Part shown: positions 7,474 to 23,667 of the stretch, one piece after another
How positions within the stretch are numbered: the first letter of the stretch is position 1
Layout of the letters: every line of letters starts with the position of its first letter
Assembly (NCBI RefSeq): GCF_900156625.1
Contig: NZ_FTOB01000002.1
Location: forward strand, 94,275-118,274
Reading direction: 5' to 3'
Source of the DNA: Zobellia uliginosa
GTDB lineage: Bacteria > Bacteroidota > Bacteroidia > Flavobacteriales > Flavobacteriaceae
DNA length: 24,000 nucleotides
Translations under genes and position numbers: made by a program
The notes under the pieces: generated by a model
Seen by the model: only the letters and a program-made list of their open reading frames with translations
What the model was told of the DNA's origin: nothing
Database searches by the model: none

Positions 7474-7521
7474 TCTATTTGTTTTCGAGAATGTTGTTTT
7501 ACATTACGTATAGCCCATATA

Positions 7522-7675
7522 CCTGTAGCACAAGTTATAAAAAAAAGAGCTTTTTGGGATCCTTGCCAATCGGGCGATGGATCCTAACTTGTTGGTGTGC
7601 CGTGTAACTTGGCTCCCTAAAAAGGGCTTAAAAACGATGTTTTTTTCGCTGTTCAAGGACTCGGGTAAGGGTTAC
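7522..7675 (+). mobile_element. Degenerate remnant / mini-derivative related to the ends of the IS1182-family element at 21923-23645
   Basis: CCTGTAGCACAAGTTATAAAAAAAAG (7522-) resembles the IS left end CCTGTTGCACAAGTTAACGAAAAAAC. GGCTTAAAAACGATGTTTTTTTCGCTGTTCAAGGACTCGGGTAAGGGTTAC (to 7675) resembles the IS right end GGCTTATATAAATCCGTTTTTTTGCTTTTCAATGGCTTGTGCAACGATTAC. The alignment was done by eye only. Confidence 0.35.
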
Positions 7676-7866
7676 CCATATTGGTATTGGTTGTTTAGTG
7701 TGTTCAATTTCAATCATTTATTCATTTGCCATAAGCATTTTGGCCTCAATCTCTTCTTGAAATATAAATACTAATTTTCTTCTCTTCTCCTTTTCAAATA
7801 TAAGAGTCTATTTTTCCACATATTTATTGGTCCAGTCACCATTGACCATTCCGCTATGTTTCGTTT

Positions 7867-8623: not shown

Positions 8624-8703
8624 ATAACAACGGAATGGTAGCGGATTTTATTTTTTTCGGACGGGGAGATATTTGTTTTCGCTCCCGCTACTTTGTGGGA
8701 CGG
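8624..8703. repeat. Short uninterrupted attC-like palindrome (unit H) 4 nt downstream of the esterase stop
   Basis: On the + strand, ATAACAACGG-AATGGTAGCGGA ... CTCCCGCTAC-TTTGTGGGACGG. The arms GTAGCGG/CCGCTAC pair, an inner hairpin CGGGGAG/CTCCCG is present, and the ACAACGG / TTTGTGG terminal boxes match the units at 16.5-23.7 kb. Confidence 0.5.
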
Positions 8704-16753: not shown

Positions 16754-17489
16754 CGCCACAACGAGGTTGTGTATGGTTAGTTGCTTTGCGACTAAAGATA
16801 GCAAAAGGGGACGAATCTGAGGGAAATTCGGAGAATTTTCAGATTAGAGATTATCAAACTCTGGCAATTAATTATACACGGTGTGTGCCCAGTATGGGCA
16901 TCCTTTACGCTACAGAAATGTAGTTGATTAATCTAGAGGGGGCAAGTCCCTTATGGGCAGGGGTAACGCCTTGAACCATTAGTAAGTCGCAAGGGTGGTA
17001 ACTGCGAAGTTACATCTGAAGAAAGCGCGACTACAAAACTCGGTACCGACGAACAGGAACCGTATACGGAGGCATATTCATCCGGGCAAGCAAGCACATC
17101 ATTGTAACGCCCCAAGAGAACCAAAAGGATGATTATGTAGATACGGCGGTTATCGAGCGAAAGAAGATGTTCTTACCTGGGGAGATCTCTATAACCACGA
17201 GTTGGTATAGTAGAGAAGTCAGCAGAGGTCATAGTACTTACGGGCAACGAGCTAGGGCAATACCCTAGAGGTCTCACAAGTAAGGAAGGACCGAACGTAA
17301 TTCTCTTCAAAATTCGCATAGGAGCACGTGTTGTAGCCTATGTCTAAATTAGAAGATAGTGCCAAGGGTGGAAAGAGCCTTGGTTTGATGATTTACGAAC
17401 CGCCTGTTACGAGACCCGTATGGCAGGTGGTGTGAGAGGCGCAGTCCGTTCCTAACTAGGGGCGGACCCGTCTACTCGATTGTGGTGCG
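16754..17489. repeat. attC-like palindrome unit A, split by the group II intron (16883-17480)
   Basis: The left arm GTGTATGGTTAGTTGC (16769-16784) pairs with GCAATTAATTATACAC (16864-16879) as 13 Watson-Crick plus 3 G.T pairs. The outer box CGCCACAACG (16754-16763) pairs with GGT|TGTGGTGCG across the intron. The unit ends 3 nt from the stop of the 219-aa ORF. Confidence 0.6.
16883..17480 (+). mobile_element. ORF-less group II intron (class C-like), antisense to the flanking genes
   Basis: The 5' end GUGUGCCCAGUAUGGGCA fits GUGYG plus the domain I stem. The string GAAGUCAGCAGAGGUCAUAGUA is typical of bacterial introns. A domain V-like 33-nt hairpin lies at 17399-17431 (ACCGCCUG/CAGGUGGU, CGC triad, 3'-side bulge). 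Domain VI (17433-17478) has a bulged A at 17474, 7 nt from the AU 3' end. No + strand ORF of 60 aa or more lies inside. The 5' boundary is uncertain by 2 nt (16881 or 16883). Confidence 0.75.
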
Positions 17490-18200: not shown

Positions 18201-18969
18201 AATGCACCACAACGCTAAATATATGGCAAGTTGGGCGGAAAACAAGTAATTATTTTTGGTTTAGCCACAAGCCAAATCTTTTGTATTTTGTTTTAATTTT
18301 TCTCTTTTAATACCAAATCAAAATATTTGGCGACTTTGCAAATAGACAACAACCTTTCGATTAAACACTAATCGCCAATTTGCTATATATAGTGTGCCTG
18401 TTGCACAAGTTAACGAAAAAACCACATAGGATCAAGGCGATCTTAACGTTGCGTTGTTAATTTTAGGTATGCAGGGAAAAAAGGATTACCAAGAAAAACG
18501 GTTCGCCCATTTCCAGTTGAGCGAGCGAATCCCCGAGAACAATTTCTACAGGCGGTTAAAGGAGGTTTTGGAACTCCGGTTCTTTTACGGCCTTACCGAA
18601 GGCTACTACGGGAACAGCGGCCAAAAGAGCATAGACCCGGTGGTCTTCTTCAAGCTCTGCCTTGTGGGCTACCTGGAGAACATCATCAGCGACCGCAAGC
18701 TTACAAGGTGATGCACCTCTCGGCCATAGCCTATAATCTTAAAAAGTACCTGAAATTCACGGAAAAACGTGCCAAAAGCGGGGCGGGACGGCTTGATTTG
18801 GCAGTCTTGGCAAAAAGTGCGCTTCAATACTTGTTTGGGACTTGCATAAAACATCGAAATTTGGTGCCTCGATTCTGGCCCGACATAAAAAGAGCCCCGT
18901 AAAGAGGCTTATATGAATCCGTTTTTTTGCTTTTCAATGGCTTGTGCAACGATTACTTGTGTTAGCATT
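18201..18969. repeat. attC-like palindrome unit B, split by MITE copy 1 (18393-18956)
   Basis: The left part AATGCACCACAACGCTAAATATATGGCAAGTTGGGCGG (18201-18238) pairs with ATCGCCAATTTGCTATATATAG (18371-18392) plus TTGTGTTAGCATT (18957-18969). The reverse complement of the right part reads AATGCTAACACAACTATATATAGCAAATTGGCGAT. An inner inverted repeat is GCCAAATCTTTTG/CAAAATATTTGGC. Confidence 0.6.
18393..18956 (+). mobile_element. Internally deleted, non-autonomous (MITE-like) IS1182-family derivative, copy 1
   Basis: This 564-bp copy is collinear with both ends of the full IS at 21923-23645. About 1159 bp are missing between GACCGCAAGCT and ACAAGGTGATGCAC. Only transposase fragments remain (85-aa N-terminal and 64-aa C-terminal ORFs). 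Confidence 0.85.
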
Positions 18970-18974
18970 AGTTT

Positions 18975-19535
18975 TTATTCGGGCAATTTATCATATATCG
19001 TAATGTCTACAGGAATTTTTATTTTTTTATTTACTTTTCCAGGCATTTCAAAGTCAATTAAAATATGTCCTTTAAGTTTTTCATATTCTTTGTCAAGTTT
19101 TATTTTAATCCCTAAGTTTTGACATAAAACATTATCATAATCCCATAAAGAGTATTCCTGTAAATTAACAGCTATTTCATTATCTACTATTTGGAGTTTC
19201 TCATTTTTCTCATTTATCAATTCGTAATCTTTAAAGGTACATGTAGTAAAATCCCAAATATCATCGTCTTTGTTGATTATAGTTCCATTGTTTTCATTAA
19301 ACTCTTCCAGTTTCGTTTTGGATATAGGATATCTAGTATAAAGATGTACTAAACTTGTTGGTTGCTTTTTCCTTTCAGTAAAGGCTCCAATAGAAATTGT
19401 TGCTTTTGCTCCAATTTCGTCTAAAAACTGTTCACTCTCGTTTTTAGAATATTTGTAATCGGATTTATCTTGACTATTACAACTGGTCAGAAATACAGTT
19501 AGTGTTATGAAAAAAAGTTTTCTAAAATATTTCAT
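18975..19535 (-). CDS. Hypothetical lipoprotein
   Basis: 186 aa with a signal peptide and lipobox (TLTVFLTSC|NSQ). I recognise no family. Confidence 0.7.
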   Translation of the reverse strand: MKYFRKLFFITLTVFLTSCNSQDKSDYKYSKNESEQFLDEIGAKATISIGAFTERKKQPTSLVHLYTRYPISKTKLEEFNENNGTIINKDDDIWDFTTCTFKDYELINEKNEKLQIVDNEIAVNLQEYSLWDYDNVLCQNLGIKIKLDKEYEKLKGHILIDFEMPGKVNKKIKIPVDITIYDKLPE

Positions 19536-19556
19536 TCTGGAATTTTAGTTTAAATT

Positions 19557-20278
19557 AATGCTAACGGTTTGTATAAGATTAGTTGCGTCGTTTAAGCAAC
19601 TAATTTAGCAAATACAAACCGAACCTGCCAGCCGGCAGGCTGGTAGAAAATCCGCAAGGATTTTCGTAAGTAGGCTAGAACTAGCAATAAATTATATACG
19701 GTGTGCCTGTTGCACAAGTTAACGAAAAAACCACATAGGATCAAGGCGATCTTAACGTTGCGTTGTTAATTTTAGGTATGCAGGGAAAAAAGGATTACCA
19801 AGAAAAACGGTTCGCCCATTTCCAATTGGGCGAGCGAATCCCCGAGAACAATTTCTACAGGCGGTTAAAGGAGGTTTTGGAACTCCGGTTCCTTTATGGC
19901 CTTAGCGAAGGCTATTACGGGAACAGCGGCCAAAAGAGCATAGACCCGGTGGTCTTCTTCAAGCTCTGTCTTGTGGGCTATCTGGAGAACATCGTCAGCG
20001 ACCGCAAGCTTACAAGGTGATGCACCTCTCGGCGATTGCCTATAACCTGAAGAAGTGCCTGAAATTCACGGAAAAACGTGTCAAAAGCGGGGCGGGACGG
20101 CTTGATTTGGCAGTCTTGGTAAAAAGTGCGCTTCAATACTTGTTCGGGACTTGCATAAAACATCTAAATTTGGTGCCTCGATTCTGCCCCGACATAAAAA
20201 AAGCCCCGTAAAGAGGCTTATATGAATCCGTTTTTTTGCTTTTCAATGGCTTGTGCAAGGATTACTAGTGTTACCTGC
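19557..20278. repeat. attC-like palindrome unit C, split by MITE copy 2 (19702-20265)
   Basis: The left arm GTATAAGATTAGTTGC (19571-19586) pairs with GCAATAAATTATATAC (19684-19699) as 12 Watson-Crick, 2 G.T and 2 A.A pairs. The outer boxes are AATGCTAACGG and TAGTGTTACCTG. The interior holds a perfect local palindrome (19566-19620), CCTGCC-agcc-GGCAGG, and GAAAATCC-gcaa-GGATTTTC (19646-19665). The unit is homologous to unit A over most of its length. Confidence 0.6.
19702..20265 (+). mobile_element. Internally deleted, non-autonomous (MITE-like) IS1182-family derivative, copy 2
   Basis: It has the same 564-bp length and the same deletion junction (GACCGCAAGCTTACAAGGTGATGCAC) as copy 1. Scattered substitutions separate it from copy 1 and from the full IS. 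Confidence 0.85.
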
Positions 20279-21679
20279 TGGCTTTTCGGCTTCTAAATCC
20301 CAGTATAATTGCACGTAATTATTGACGGCAATTAGTCTTAAAGTAAATTCGCCCATTATCCATCTTCTTCCATGCCACTTTCCATCATCGAATTCGCTCA
20401 TTTTAAAAGGTCCATCGTCATTTATATCAGGTCCGAAAGCTCCTAATAAGCGGTTTACTAATTCTCTTATTTCTTTATCTATTATAAACCAATTAGTAGG
20501 CTTGTCCTGACTTAAAAAAACAGACCATTCTTCATTCTCGTCGAAAGGATGGAAAGTAACTAATTTATTGAAAAAGCCAAACAAGAAATAAGGAAAGTAA
20601 AATGTTCTGTATTTTCCTGAATCAATTTCGGATTCATAAAAATCATTGGATTCCAAACGGTTTTGAAAAATGTTTAAATCAGTTTGAGGGTCTTTATTGC
20701 CTAAAAAGTTTTTATAAAATTCTAAAAATTCTTCAGGTTTTTGAACTCTAGTATTTATATCTAATTTTTCAAAAACTTTAAGTGTTTTCTTGTAAGACCT
20801 TTTATCATTAATAACATAGAAATTGCAGGTTGACGCATATGCTGCGTGGAACGCGTCTTCTGTTGTATTCTTGAAAGTTTCTTTTCTACCTTTTTTAATG
20901 TTTACTTTATCTTCTTGATAACCGTGCATATCTAATTTTAGATATTCATTAGATATGTCATTAAACCATTTCGGGGCATGCTTGCCATTGTTTTTGAACT
21001 GGTCGACGGTAATACCAAGTTTATCGTAACTTTTGTCAATTAAATCAAATGGGTTTTCAGTATTAAAAATCTTATCCCTATTAATACCCATACCATTTTG
21101 TATTGTTTGTCTTAACTCCTTGTAGCCATCATTTTCATTTAGATTTATATTCATTTGAGAAAAACTTTTGAAAAAACCACCCATTGTAGGCTTATCTTTT
21201 AAACCAGGGAACATATTTTCCATTATGGCTGCGCTTTCAGGGTTTTTGAAAGCTTCTTTAAGCGAATCATCTAATGGTAGATTTTTAAGTAAATCGAACA
21301 ATGGTTTAACTATCTTGTTCGTTTTTTCATCATCTTCGAAGGTCTTCATTAATCCTTCAATACTTAAATCTTTAAATGAGTCTTTACTTTCAATTGTGTG
21401 CTCAAATAACTCCTTAGGTGGATACTGTTCACAAACAATTCCCTTTCCATTGTTATATAAACAATAGTTCTCTGTTAGTTCTGAAATAAACTCTAAGTCC
21501 GAGTTAATCAGTTCCTGTTGTTTTTGATTTTCGCTAAAACTAGCAGATATATCAGTTATATGAGAACTAGAAAAAATAACAAATAAATTGTGATTATTTA
21601 AAAGGATTTCTTTTAACTCCGAATGTGCTCCATTTTTAATTTGAGATAGGACATTCCAGTCAAAATAAACTTTAATCAT
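20243..21679 (-). CDS. Hypothetical protein with PIN-like nuclease motifs (tentative); 3' end runs into MITE copy 2
   Basis: The start is placed at MIKVYFDWNVLSQI (21679), because the 570-aa track ORF begins inside the IS end. The N-terminal xxFDxNVL and distal TEDAFHAAYASTCNFYVINDK resemble the first and last acidic motifs of PIN-like domains. The last 9 codons and the stop (NTSNPCTSH*) are encoded by the MITE terminus. The CDS is well supported, but the product call is weak. Confidence 0.6.
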   Translation of the reverse strand: MIKVYFDWNVLSQIKNGAHSELKEILLNNHNLFVIFSSSHITDISASFSENQKQQELINSDLEFISELTENYCLYNNGKGIVCEQYPPKELFEHTIESKDSFKDLSIEGLMKTFEDDEKTNKIVKPLFDLLKNLPLDDSLKEAFKNPESAAIMENMFPGLKDKPTMGGFFKSFSQMNINLNENDGYKELRQTIQNGMGINRDKIFNTENPFDLIDKSYDKLGITVDQFKNNGKHAPKWFNDISNEYLKLDMHGYQEDKVNIKKGRKETFKNTTEDAFHAAYASTCNFYVINDKRSYKKTLKVFEKLDINTRVQKPEEFLEFYKNFLGNKDPQTDLNIFQNRLESNDFYESEIDSGKYRTFYFPYFLFGFFNKLVTFHPFDENEEWSVFLSQDKPTNWFIIDKEIRELVNRLLGAFGPDINDDGPFKMSEFDDGKWHGRRWIMGEFTLRLIAVNNYVQLYWDLEAEKPAGNTSNPCTSH

Positions 21680-21922
21680 GTTTACTGGTGGTTTTTTGAG
21701 CTTGCAGATAACGGTTGAGCTAAGCGTAGTGCGGAGGTACGACATCTGCGACAGCAGTGGGCGAGTTGGCGCGCTGGCCAGTTTCCGTCTTAACACGAAG
21801 CTAAAGCTTTTGGTTTTGCTTTTTCTTTTTTTGTCCAAAGCTAAATCCCAAAGATTTAGCGCCATTATAAATATACACAGACCTTTCAATTTTGCCCTAA
21901 AGTCCGCATTACGTTTAGGCAT

Positions 21923-23645
21923 TGTGCCTGTTGCACAAGTTAACGAAAAAACCACATAGGATCAAGGCGATCTTAACGTTGCGTTGTTAATTTTAGGTAT
22001 GCAGGGAAAAAAGCATTACCAAGAAAAACTGTTCGCCCATTTCCAGTTGAGCGAGCGAATCCCCGAGAACAATTTCTACAGGCGGTTAAAGGAGGTTTTG
22101 GAACTCCGGTTCCTTTACGGCCTTACCGAAGGCTATTACGGGAACAGCGGCCAAAAGAGCATAGACCCGGTGGTCTTCTTCAAGCTCTGCCTTGTGGGCT
22201 ATCTGGAGAACATCATCAGCGACCGCAAGCTCATGGCCCATTGTTCCCTACGGTTGGACATCCTTTATTTCATAGGGTACGATATAGACGAGGAGCTCCC
22301 CTGGCACAGTACGATAAGCCGTACCCGCCAACTGTTCCCGGAAAGTGTATTCGAGGAAGTCTTCACCACGGTTTTACGTATGTGCGTGGAGAAGGGAATG
22401 GTAAGCGGCCATACCCAGGCCATAGATTCCGCACCGGTCAAGGCCAACGCGAGCATGGACACCTTGGAACTTAAGGTGCCCGAAGGGGAACTGGACGAAC
22501 ACCTGCGCAAGGTACGGGTGCTGAGTGCAATGGACAAAGGGGAGCCACACCGTAAATCGCAGAACGACAGGTCGGACAAGGGCCAGCGCAGCGTTACGGC
22601 CAACCCCAACGAACTGGCGGCGATAAAGGGCCGGAACAAAAAATGGGCGAAGGACCAGGACCAACGCCCGGGCGCCAAGAACAAGGGGGCCAAGTATACG
22701 AGTAACAAAACACATTACAGCCCCACGGACCCCGATGCGAGGATCAGCGTAAAACCGGGCAAGGCCCGAAAGCTGAACTACCTGAGCCAATTGAGCGTTG
22801 ATACGGCCCACCACGTCATTACGGACATCAGGGCCTACCATGCGGACGGGAAGGACAACCAACAGTTGCCGGATATCGTCCAAAGACTTCGGGCAAGGTT
22901 GTGGAAGCAGGGCCTGGTCTGGGAGAACTGTGTAGCGGACACGGGTTACAGTAGCGGGGAGAACTATGCCTTTCTAGAGGATATCGGTCTAAAGAGCTTC
23001 ATTCCGCCCCATGGCACCTACAAGGGCGGTCCGGACGGATTCACCTATAACAATACAGAAGACCATTACGTATGTCCGCAGGGCAAGGTGATACCCTTCA
23101 CCAAGGTGTTCAACGATCACCGTACGGGTACGAAAAAGAAAGCGTACCGCGCATCGAGCCTGATCTGTAAGGGCTGCCCGTTGAAATCCACATGTCTGGG
23201 CAAGGTGAACGAAAAACAATTTTCGGTCACCTATTACCGTGCGGAGTACGAGCGGAACATCAAAAGGGTGAACAGTAAATTGGGGCGCTATATGAAGGGC
23301 AAGCGACAGAGTACGGTAGAGCCCGTATTCGGAACGCTGACCCAGTTCATGGGGCTCAGGAAGATAAACACCATAGGATTGGCACAGGCCAACAAGGTGA
23401 TGCACCTCTCGGCGATTGCCTATAACCTGAAGAAGTACCTGAAATTCACGGAAAAACGCTCAAAAAGCGGGGCGGGACGGCTTGATTTGGCAGTCTTGGC
23501 AAAAAGTGCGCTTCAATACTTGTTCGGGACTTGCATAAAGCATCGAAATTTGGTGCCTCGATTCTGGCCCGACATAAAAAAAGCCCCGTAAAGAGGCTTA
23601 TATAAATCCGTTTTTTTGCTTTTCAATGGCTTGTGCAACGATTAC
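21923..23645 (+). mobile_element. IS1182-family insertion sequence, full length (1723 bp)
   Basis: The boundaries are defined by where the three copies stop being alike (TGTGCCTGTTGCACAAG... ...CTTGTGCAACGATTAC). A subterminal inverted 10-mer GTTGCACAAG lies 7 nt and 6 nt from the ends. It has a single long transposase ORF. I could not identify a target-site duplication. Confidence 0.9.
21999..23591 (+). CDS. IS1182-family DDE transposase
   Basis: 530 aa from the ATG at 21999; the track uses the TTG at 21984. The N-terminal InsH/DUF772-type region is IPENNFYRRLKEVLELRF...GQKSIDPVVFFKLCLVGYLENIISDRKL...PWHSTISRTRQLF. The C-terminal region is STVEPVFGTLTQFMGLRKINTIGLAQANKVMHLSAIAYNLKKYLKF, as in IS1182/IS5-related transposases. 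Confidence 0.9.
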   Translation: MQGKKHYQEKLFAHFQLSERIPENNFYRRLKEVLELRFLYGLTEGYYGNSGQKSIDPVVFFKLCLVGYLENIISDRKLMAHCSLRLDILYFIGYDIDEELPWHSTISRTRQLFPESVFEEVFTTVLRMCVEKGMVSGHTQAIDSAPVKANASMDTLELKVPEGELDEHLRKVRVLSAMDKGEPHRKSQNDRSDKGQRSVTANPNELAAIKGRNKKWAKDQDQRPGAKNKGAKYTSNKTHYSPTDPDARISVKPGKARKLNYLSQLSVDTAHHVITDIRAYHADGKDNQQLPDIVQRLRARLWKQGLVWENCVADTGYSSGENYAFLEDIGLKSFIPPHGTYKGGPDGFTYNNTEDHYVCPQGKVIPFTKVFNDHRTGTKKKAYRASSLICKGCPLKSTCLGKVNEKQFSVTYYRAEYERNIKRVNSKLGRYMKGKRQSTVEPVFGTLTQFMGLRKINTIGLAQANKVMHLSAIAYNLKKYLKFTEKRSKSGAGRLDLAVLAKSALQYLFGTCIKHRNLVPRFWPDIKKAP

Positions 23646-23667
23646 CTTTGTTGGCATTTCGTACTTT

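Follow-up and report, generated by a model that had tools for sequence, protein, structure and literature searches.

IS1182-family insertion sequences and their short derivatives at attC-like sites of integron-like arrays in Flavobacteriaceae

We analysed a 24,000-nt stretch of the Zobellia uliginosa genome (contig NZ_FTOB01000002.1, positions 94,275–118,274 of the forward strand; hereafter the window) in which three copies of one mobile element, a full-length insertion sequence (IS; copy C) and two short copies (A and B), occupy equivalent positions in the same orientation, as an initial annotation of the letters alone had reported. Copy C is a DDE-type IS of the IS1182 family and A and B are its non-autonomous derivatives; with their relatives in other genomes, they very probably represent a Flavobacteriaceae clade specialised for the attC-like recombination sites of integron-like arrays. 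The coordinates of the elements, the sites and other features are given in Table 1.

The proposed assignment of copy C to the IS1182 family was confirmed by its intact transposase, which matches the family model NF033551 at 343 bits (cutoff, 270) over model positions 3–487 of 488 and the Pfam models DUF772, DDE_Tnp_1 and DDE_Tnp_1_6 above their cutoffs. The element length (1722 bp) falls within the range of the family, ~1.3–1.95 kb (ISfinder), its terminal inverted repeats share an identical core of 10 bp (GTTGCACAAG) and its non-coding ends measure only 76 nt and 54 nt. The end motif CCTGTTGCACAAGTTA occurs four times in the window, against a chance expectation of 0.22; besides A, B and C, it marks a decayed 157-bp derivative (Table 1). 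Element limits were set from ~45 complete relatives and one reverse-orientation copy: the latter reads ATTG^GTGCC (^ marks the junction), so that the element starts with the G of GTGCC and the preceding T belongs to the target. The copies lie where they had been placed, except that each begins 1 nt later, A and B being 563 bp long rather than 564.

Within the earlier 564-nt limits, A and B are identical at 542 of 564 positions without insertions or deletions (3.9% differing), the substitutions being scattered as described before, and each equals C (1723 nt in those limits) less 1159 nt. Alignment of the three copies placed the deletion break best at element positions 309–311 in A and B alike, and both junctions read GCAAGCT-T-ACAAGG, in which one base matches neither side of C. 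Given the shared junction and the shared odd base, the deletion arose once, and A and B are internal-deletion derivatives of a single origin, in agreement with the initial annotation. They have the size and the ends of MITEs (miniature inverted-repeat transposable elements), retaining both repeats (with one change in the right repeat of B, CAAGGATTAC) and only an 80-codon stump of the transposase N terminus (ATG at 18469 in A). The stumps differ at five synonymous and four non-synonymous positions, counts too small for an inference on selection. The three copies are about equidistant (C differs from a shared A and B state at 8 sites, B from A and C at 12 and A from B and C at 10), which indicates that the MITE lineage is old and that C is not a recent parent of A and B. 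The MITEs would have moved in trans; mobilisation by copy C itself is no more than plausible, C being no closer to A or B than A is to B. Both short copies have exact boundaries and sit in sites of different subtypes, and neither has a matching duplication of its own.

A genome scan with the left-end motif (one genome per species) revealed copies at at least 119 loci, to which a metagenome scan for the sub-lineage of the window added nine contigs, each with a copy at the contig end; the deletion junction of the 563-bp MITEs had no match in a metagenome scan aimed at it. Among the matches listed, to which all counts of relatives below refer, nearly all genome loci are from Flavobacteriaceae (Maribacter, Arenibacter, Formosa, Euzebyella, Galbibacter, Pustulibacterium, Tamlana, Tenacibaculum and others). 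Full-length relatives measure 1.67–1.77 kb and encode transposases with 70–84% identity to that of the window over the full length, so that the clade comprises several distinct ISs. In other genomes, independent short derivatives measure 150, 336, 358 and 373 bp.

The relatives define a conserved and asymmetric target. Left flanks were unique in 119 of 124 cases, indicating separate insertions, and have the consensus ...gCaATTAnTTATAgaCaTT^; nearly all left ends abut ...TTATAnn-NNNT^. On the right, 68 of the 70 unique flanks read NNN(T/G)GTT (consensus, ^CaTTGTTGtc...GTTTTTTTT). We relied on the logo and on the right-flank count, given that regular-expression counts of canonical left flanks are unreliable (the arm length varies by 1–2 nt). 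Only 2 of ~124 left ends were reversed, an orientation bias of ~98%. In these loci, many sites bearing the motif are unoccupied (for example, GCAATTAATTATACA-CGTT-GTTGGCAAA) and lie in arrays at intervals of 0.4–1.3 kb; near-identical empty versions of site B were found in Formosa, Flagellimonas and Maribacter. The site- and orientation-specific insertion claimed for the window thus extends to ~130 copies from other genomes, and the unoccupied counterparts that the initial annotation had suggested looking for exist in the loci of relatives.

The two reversed left ends are in L070 (Maribacter litopenaei, as is L029) and L032 (Maribacter sp. IgM3_T14_3). One reverse insertion sits precisely where the forward copies do and has ATTG on both sides (L070, ATTG^GTGCC...GGTTAC^ATTG), and in these Maribacter loci one copy lies between two gene-proximal boxes, as expected from recombination between a reversed and a normal copy. 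A near-identical occupied site (flank TTTTCAGAAGTAGGCGAGAACAAGCAATTACTTATAGCCAT) recurs in more than 15 loci of at least six genera (at ~650–1950 in L041, among others) and lies, in Formosa sp. 4Alg 33, downstream of a small antitoxin/toxin-like gene pair (assigned by eye); it looks like a widely shared cassette and insertion hot spot.

The occupied palindromes are cassette recombination sites. Read on the IS strand, each site consists of a left box ending in YAAC, a 6-nt spacer, an arm, ~100 nt, a second arm (ending in GCAATnAnTTATAnn), NNNT and a right box GTTRnnn. In Formosa sp. 4Alg 33, a 24-kb region (L110, L095 and L041; CP174605, 2912001–2936000) carries 13 such sites in a row, one after each minus-strand open reading frame (ORF), directly after the stop codons and in a single orientation. 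Between the right box of one site and the left box of the site that follows, 6–8 of 9 positions are complementary, as compared with about 2–3.5 of 9 for the two boxes of a single site and about 3 of 9 on average over all pairs. A second locus of Formosa sp. 4Alg 33 shows the same pattern, as do Maribacter litopenaei and Formosa sp. L2A11. This complementarity fits a unit of gene plus site that circularises by a crossover in GTT/AAC, like integron cassettes. In the window, the box after the intron, (GT)TGTGGTGCG, is complementary to the left box of site A (GCACCACAAC; GCTAA had been considered for this box and was dropped), the box following MITE A shows 10 nt of complementarity to that of site B (TAATGCTAAC, 19556–19565) and the box following MITE B agrees with that of site C at 6 of 9 positions. 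A generic search of the window for AAC...GTT palindromes was too noisy to be of use. The arrays thus combine single-gene units, imperfect palindromes with AAC/GTT outer boxes and complementary unit ends, as integron arrays do. The earlier placement of the three copies at equivalent positions in palindromes stands, and box complementarity further identifies these palindromes as attC-like sites of a cassette array.

Insertion takes place between the gene-proximal box and the first arm, staggered by 4 bp and immediately 5′ of the GTT box. The left end of the element almost always faces the arm, so that the transposase gene is antisense to the cassettes, as the flanking ORFs of the window and of Formosa show; this placement is like that of IS1111-attC elements in behaviour, not in membership.

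A tyrosine recombinase accompanies these arrays elsewhere, although none is encoded in the 24,000-nt window. The Formosa sp. 4Alg 33 array is headed by a 376-aa tyrosine recombinase on the same strand as the cassettes, which scores below the integron-integrase cutoffs (TIGR02249, 188.6 versus 265, in two stretches; NF040815, 201.6 versus 220). Of the solved structures, archaeal XerA aligns with it in one stretch and VchIntIA (2a3v) only in two, indicating that the additional domain specific to IntI is lacking. Recombinases of this type (370–380 aa, with an N-terminal extension of ~100 aa) are found at 53–71% identity across many Flavobacteriaceae genera, mostly under the name 'tyrosine-type recombinase/integrase', and lie directly upstream of arrays of this kind in two Formosa genomes, in Psychroserpens and in Tenacibaculum (loci including L132 and L133). 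In the last two genera, the arrays are on the same strand as the recombinase and begin with restriction-modification modules; in Hwangdonia, no array sites were detected by the site pattern near the recombinase. IntegronFinder 2.0 reported only In0 elements and a single complete integron for Bacteroidetes (PMC9024848). In view of this survey and the scores below the cutoffs, we use the term integron-like for the arrays rather than classing them as integrons.

These same two observations, a recombinase under the IntI cutoffs without the IntI-specific domain and the near absence of Bacteroidetes integrons from IntegronFinder surveys, would also fit palindromes that are ordinary intergenic repeats (terminators or similar to repetitive extragenic palindromic (REP) sequences), with the element being one more REP-targeting IS of the kind known from a report entitled 'Bacterial repetitive extragenic palindromic sequences are DNA targets for Insertion Sequence elements' (PMC1525189). 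We consider this improbable: ordinary repeats would not be expected to stand singly after the stop codon of each gene in one orientation, to accompany homologous genes with the same site type in different genomes or to follow a conserved recombinase at the array head in four genomes. The ends of each gene unit are, moreover, complementary to each other (6–8 of 9) rather than to the adjacent site (~3 of 9), a signature of circularisation, and group IIC introns occupy the position and strand of known attC-targeting introns.

The clade makes a 4-bp NNNT target-site duplication. Perfect 4-bp repeats flank 17 of 47 complete copies, against 8.7 expected from shuffling (P about 5e-4), and the excess persists without the commonest tetramer, CATT (8 observed versus 2.2 expected; P about 4e-4). 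Among the perfect repeats are the rare tetramers CAAT, ATTG, TTGT, TGTT, CCTT and CCAT. The absence of a target-site duplication noted initially therefore does not hold for the family, the window copies being ones with mismatched flanks. Perfect repeats are present in 16 of 34 full-length copies and in 1 of 13 MITE-sized copies. A copy on the Arenibacter algicola plasmid pSMS7 has CCTT on both sides and lies beside another mobile element, outside any array. The element cuts around NNNT and duplicates it, parting the gene-proximal (R″-like) box from the rest of the site; in the mechanism that we propose, this would uncouple the box from the site, and the transposase itself would read the conserved asymmetric motif or a structure formed by it.

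These duplications also bear on whether the element could have been placed like a cassette by the tyrosine recombinase of the array and not inserted by the DDE transposase that it encodes. Its choice of position and orientation matches site-specific recombination in strictness and, by eye, the element ends (GTTGCAC...GTGCAAC plus GGTTAC) resemble GTTRnnn/nnnYAAC boxes with a 6-nt spacer, GGTTTT. Site-specific recombinases, however, do not make variable 4-bp target duplications; the rare reverse insertion has the identical position and a perfect duplication, the pSMS7 insertion has its perfect CCTT away from any array, and an intact, conserved DDE transposase has been kept in many lineages. Placement by the recombinase is therefore very unlikely.

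The initial annotation had inferred a structure-defined target from an intron that seemed to share the insertion point of the element to within 1 nt. A fourth attC-like site of the window indeed contains a group II intron (Rfam RF02001, 128.7 bits at 16998–17172; RF01998, 43.5 bits at 17191–17291; D1–D4 models), in which no reverse-transcriptase ORF was found. Its ribozyme domains, its strand (opposite to the ORFs) and its position after ...ACACGGT(GT) are those of group IIC-attC introns, a class assigned here by domains and position and not by phylogeny. The same intron type (with the same 5′ end) occupies seven more sites in other genomes on the same strand, with the junction NNNTGT^T. The near-coincidence with the IS thus stands, except that the junctions (NNNT^GTT for the IS) are 2 nt apart. 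The 5′ end of the window intron (GTGCCCAG) is apparently 2 nt shorter than in the other genomes (GTGTGCCCAG).

That two mechanistically unrelated elements use one strand and nearly one position could mean that the target is read as folded single-stranded or cruciform DNA and not as a double-stranded motif. The strong strand bias fits such recognition, and IS1272, another member of the family, uses inverted-repeat structures with unrelated sequences as targets, while some IS1182 members are said to target palindromes (PMC5678879). About 12 flank positions (ATT..TTATA..T^..TGTTG) are, by contrast, strongly conserved across differing site subtypes, and the pSMS7 target has the motif even though it adjoins a mobile element and not a cassette array. 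Furthermore, the target is kept and duplicated, unlike the replacement made by IS1272, and, within their arrays, most sites are not predicted to adopt a whole-site hairpin as the fold of minimum energy. We regard recognition of folded DNA as a possible but rather unlikely alternative; with a motif so strongly conserved, recognition of sequence is at least as likely, and the insertions do not establish a structure-defined target.

Several observations weigh against the interpretation proposed here, an IS1182 clade with its MITEs specialised for integron-like arrays. The array recombinase fails the integron-integrase cutoffs; about 5 of 119 left flanks are unlike the site; and recognition of sequence and of folded DNA would look the same in the insertions analysed here. 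The junction of the 563-bp MITE, whose transposition is at most indirectly indicated, matched nothing else in the metagenomes scanned. In the window itself, no flank pair is a perfect repeat (left/right: A, TAGT/TTGT; B, CGGT/TAGT; C, CATT/CTTT), with 3 of 4, 2 of 4 and 3 of 4 positions matching, respectively.

The mismatched flanks of the window are likely to result from recombination between copies. Many mismatched pairs differ at two or more of the four positions, making substitution alone an unlikely cause. The gene to the right of MITE B (20243–21690) has homologues with 86–87% identity in two metagenomic contigs (L130 and L131), each with an uninterrupted site of the same type. The native site of this cassette family reads GTCCGCATTACGTTTAGG-CTTT-GTTATCTGCTGGC (GTTTAGG-CTTT-GTTATCTGCTGGC in the two contigs); its left part resembles the body to the left of copy C (~215 nt of homology) and not that to the left of MITE B, whereas its right part resembles the box to the right of MITE B. 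MITE B thus now joins this gene to a foreign attC body. The minus-strand ORF extends seven codons into the MITE and stops at 20243–20245, whereas its homologues end in their own site. Co-oriented copies would permit homologous recombination, or intramolecular transposition into neighbouring sites, that deletes or reshuffles cassettes; such reshuffling would explain non-matching flanks in about half of the full-length copies, in nearly all MITEs and in all three window copies. We also considered, for the misplaced native body of ORF 20243–21690, an 'inside-out circle' (a cassette circle bearing the IS and integrated by recombination) and rejected it, as the internal flanks differ (TAGT versus CATT) and so do the outer ones (CGGT versus CTTT).

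With recombination at the flanks after insertion, A and B need not represent two independent transpositions. The two MITEs and the cassette that they enclose (18394–20265) might instead have arrived in one step, as a composite transposon or as a MITE-bearing circle that recombined into a single resident MITE; the prior target would then have been the body of site A joined directly to GTTACCTGC. The outer flanks are both TAGT (18390–18393 and 20266–20269), a tetramer that is rare among flanks (3 of 44 left and 1 of 44 right), the inner flanks (TTGT and CGGT) differ, and the attC body beside MITE B is foreign to the gene on its other side. The match, however, spans only 4 nt and could be due to chance at a few per cent; the gene to the right of MITE B has a native attC that resembles site C and not site A, so the target would also have been non-native, A and B differ at 3.9% of positions, and two separate deletions between copies could look alike. 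Arrival in one step is accordingly a doubtful alternative to two separate insertions, if one that merits consideration.

Mobile elements that target attC, namely IS1111-attC elements and group IIC-attC introns, and palindrome-targeting IS1182 members are already known. The former two enter attC close to its 5′ end and in antisense orientation relative to the cassettes (PMC3001079). IS1111-attC elements (ISPa21, ISPst6 and ISKpn4; IS110/IS1111) resemble the clade in using one attC end in a fixed orientation (PMC3001079; PMC11187229), but have a seekRNA-guided DEDD transposase, subterminal repeats and a circular intermediate. The clade instead has a DDE transposase, terminal inverted repeats, a 4-bp duplication and, as copy C illustrates, short non-coding ends; neither the DEDD transposase nor the guide-RNA region that would mark IS1111-attC membership is present. 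Group IIC-attC introns use the same bottom attC strand and almost the same position, but are retroelements that find their target through RNA and a stem-loop, with a junction 2 nt downstream of that of the IS. IS1272 is reported to replace hairpins of unrelated sequence without duplication (PMC5678879). The clade shares with IS1272 and other palindrome-targeting members the family and the preference for inverted repeats; it differs in its conserved-sequence target, in its fixed orientation and in leaving the two site halves in place with a 4-bp duplication, so that it is not of the type replacing inverted repeats. As in IS-derived MITEs and MITE pairs that move integrons or resistance genes, A and B keep the parental ends and bracket a cassette; unlike the known pairs, they lie inside the recombination sites of the array, and movement as a unit is suggested by one 4-bp match only.

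The arrays share with integrons (IntI, attI and attC) one-gene units, AAC...GTT palindromes with complementary ends, a tyrosine recombinase at the head and group IIC introns as parasites. They differ in the recombinase, which is XerA-like, has the ~100-aa extension, lacks the IntI domain and is co-oriented with the cassettes, and in the sites, which are long (~150–220 nt) and have a 6-nt versus 4-nt spacer asymmetry. We tentatively suggest, short of considering it probable, that Flavobacteriaceae possess a widespread, vertically conserved integron-like system missed by standard detection, defined by an XerA-like recombinase with an extension of ~100 aa and no IntI domain, sites of 150–220 nt, and restriction-modification and toxin–antitoxin cassettes. 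The sites would be a landing pad for at least three unrelated classes of elements (the IS1182 clade with its MITEs, group IIC introns and tyrosine-recombinase/IS91 elements), with IS and MITE copies driving deletion and shuffling of cassettes independently of the recombinase.

In the literature searched, we found no description of IS1182 elements or MITEs in attC or of integron-like arrays in Flavobacteriaceae, although most subscription journals and ISfinder were outside the search and absence there is no proof. If the specialisation proposed here is correct, this DDE clade would be a third, independent solution to attC targeting with the same position and strand preference, and a tractable model for a DDE transposase with near-absolute choice of site and orientation. 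The flanks of the element serve as markers of marine Flavobacteriaceae cassette arrays that evidently escape integron-finding software, and a recombinase without the domain thought to be essential for attC recognition bears on the origin of integrons from Xer-like recombinases. By parting the gene-proximal box from its site, insertion probably freezes cassettes in place, and recombination among many co-oriented copies, by deleting or reshuffling cassettes, would affect array dynamics.

Table 1. Elements, attC-like sites and other features of the window (positions from the first nucleotide of the window).
Feature	Position	Strand	Basis or description
Full-length IS1182-family element, copy C, 1722 bp	21924..23645	+	Ends 5′-GT...AC-3′
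Inverted repeats of copy C			Left (IRL), GTGCCTGTTGCACAAG; right (IRR, reverse complement), GTAATCGTTGCACAAG
Transposase gene, 530 aa, intact	21999..23591	+	NCBIfam NF033551, Pfam, relatives
MITE-like derivative A, 563 bp	18394..18956	+	Copy C minus 1159 bp; both inverted repeats kept
MITE-like derivative B, 563 bp	19703..20265	+	Deletion junction as in A
attC-like site A, body	18204..18393	+ (bottom strand relative to cassette genes)	Left box GCACCACAAC, 6-nt spacer, arms, TAGT
Right flank of MITE A	18957..18972	+	TTGT, then box GTTAGCATTAG; R″-like box of cassette with ORF 18975–19535
attC-like site B, body	19556..19702	+	Ends ...GCAATAAATTATATA-CGGT
Right flank of MITE B	20266..20282	+	TAGT, then box GTTACCTGCTGGC; R″-like box of cassette whose gene ends here
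attC-like site C, body	21704..21923	+	Ends ...CGCATTACGTTTAGG-CATT
Right flank of copy C	23646..23661	+	CTTT, then box GTTGGCATTTCG
Group II intron without ORF, in a fourth attC-like site	16883..17480	+ (IS strand)	Rfam RF02001, RF01998
Decayed MITE of the same clade, 157 bp	7519..7675	+	ATACCTGTAGCACAAG...GGGTAAGGGTTAC; perfect CCAT at 7515–7518 and 7676–7679

By eye, the element ends (for example, at 18394–18409 and 18941–18956) look like the target boxes with their 6-nt spacer: the repeat cores read GTTGCAC/GTGCAAC, and GATTAC or GGTTAC makes up the 6 nt beyond the right repeat; one comparison, likewise by eye, sets GTGCAAC plus GGTTAC beside TTGCCAAC plus GGTTTT.

A candidate further class of elements was encountered at or near such sites. 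A tblastn search for IntI (with an approximate IntI1 query) returned eight loci, five of which encode recombinases of ~300 aa (L017, L011, L028, L099 and L117). They probably belong as partners to IS91-type elements and not to the arrays as integrases, given that on pSMS7 (L129, 13727–15849) the equivalent tyrosine-recombinase gene is annotated beside an IS91-family transposase. The sequence GAACTAA(T/A)CCT... lies directly 3′ of an attC-like NNNT-GTT in three places (the site lists of L086 and L103, and pSMS7) and, on pSMS7, ~280 nt ahead of the recombinase gene. Recombinase/IS91-type elements may thus be another mobile class that uses attC-like sites.

Elsewhere in the window, the decayed 157-bp MITE is similar in architecture to the 150-bp MITEs of Maribacter aquimaris and sits in a degenerate site, which suggests that the 5–12-kb part of the window is also an old cassette array. 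A 69-nt palindrome at 8629–8697 has a like architecture (CATAACAAC, 5–6 nt, GGTAGCGG ... CCGCTAC, TTT, GTGGGAC) and may be an attC-like site of a different subtype.

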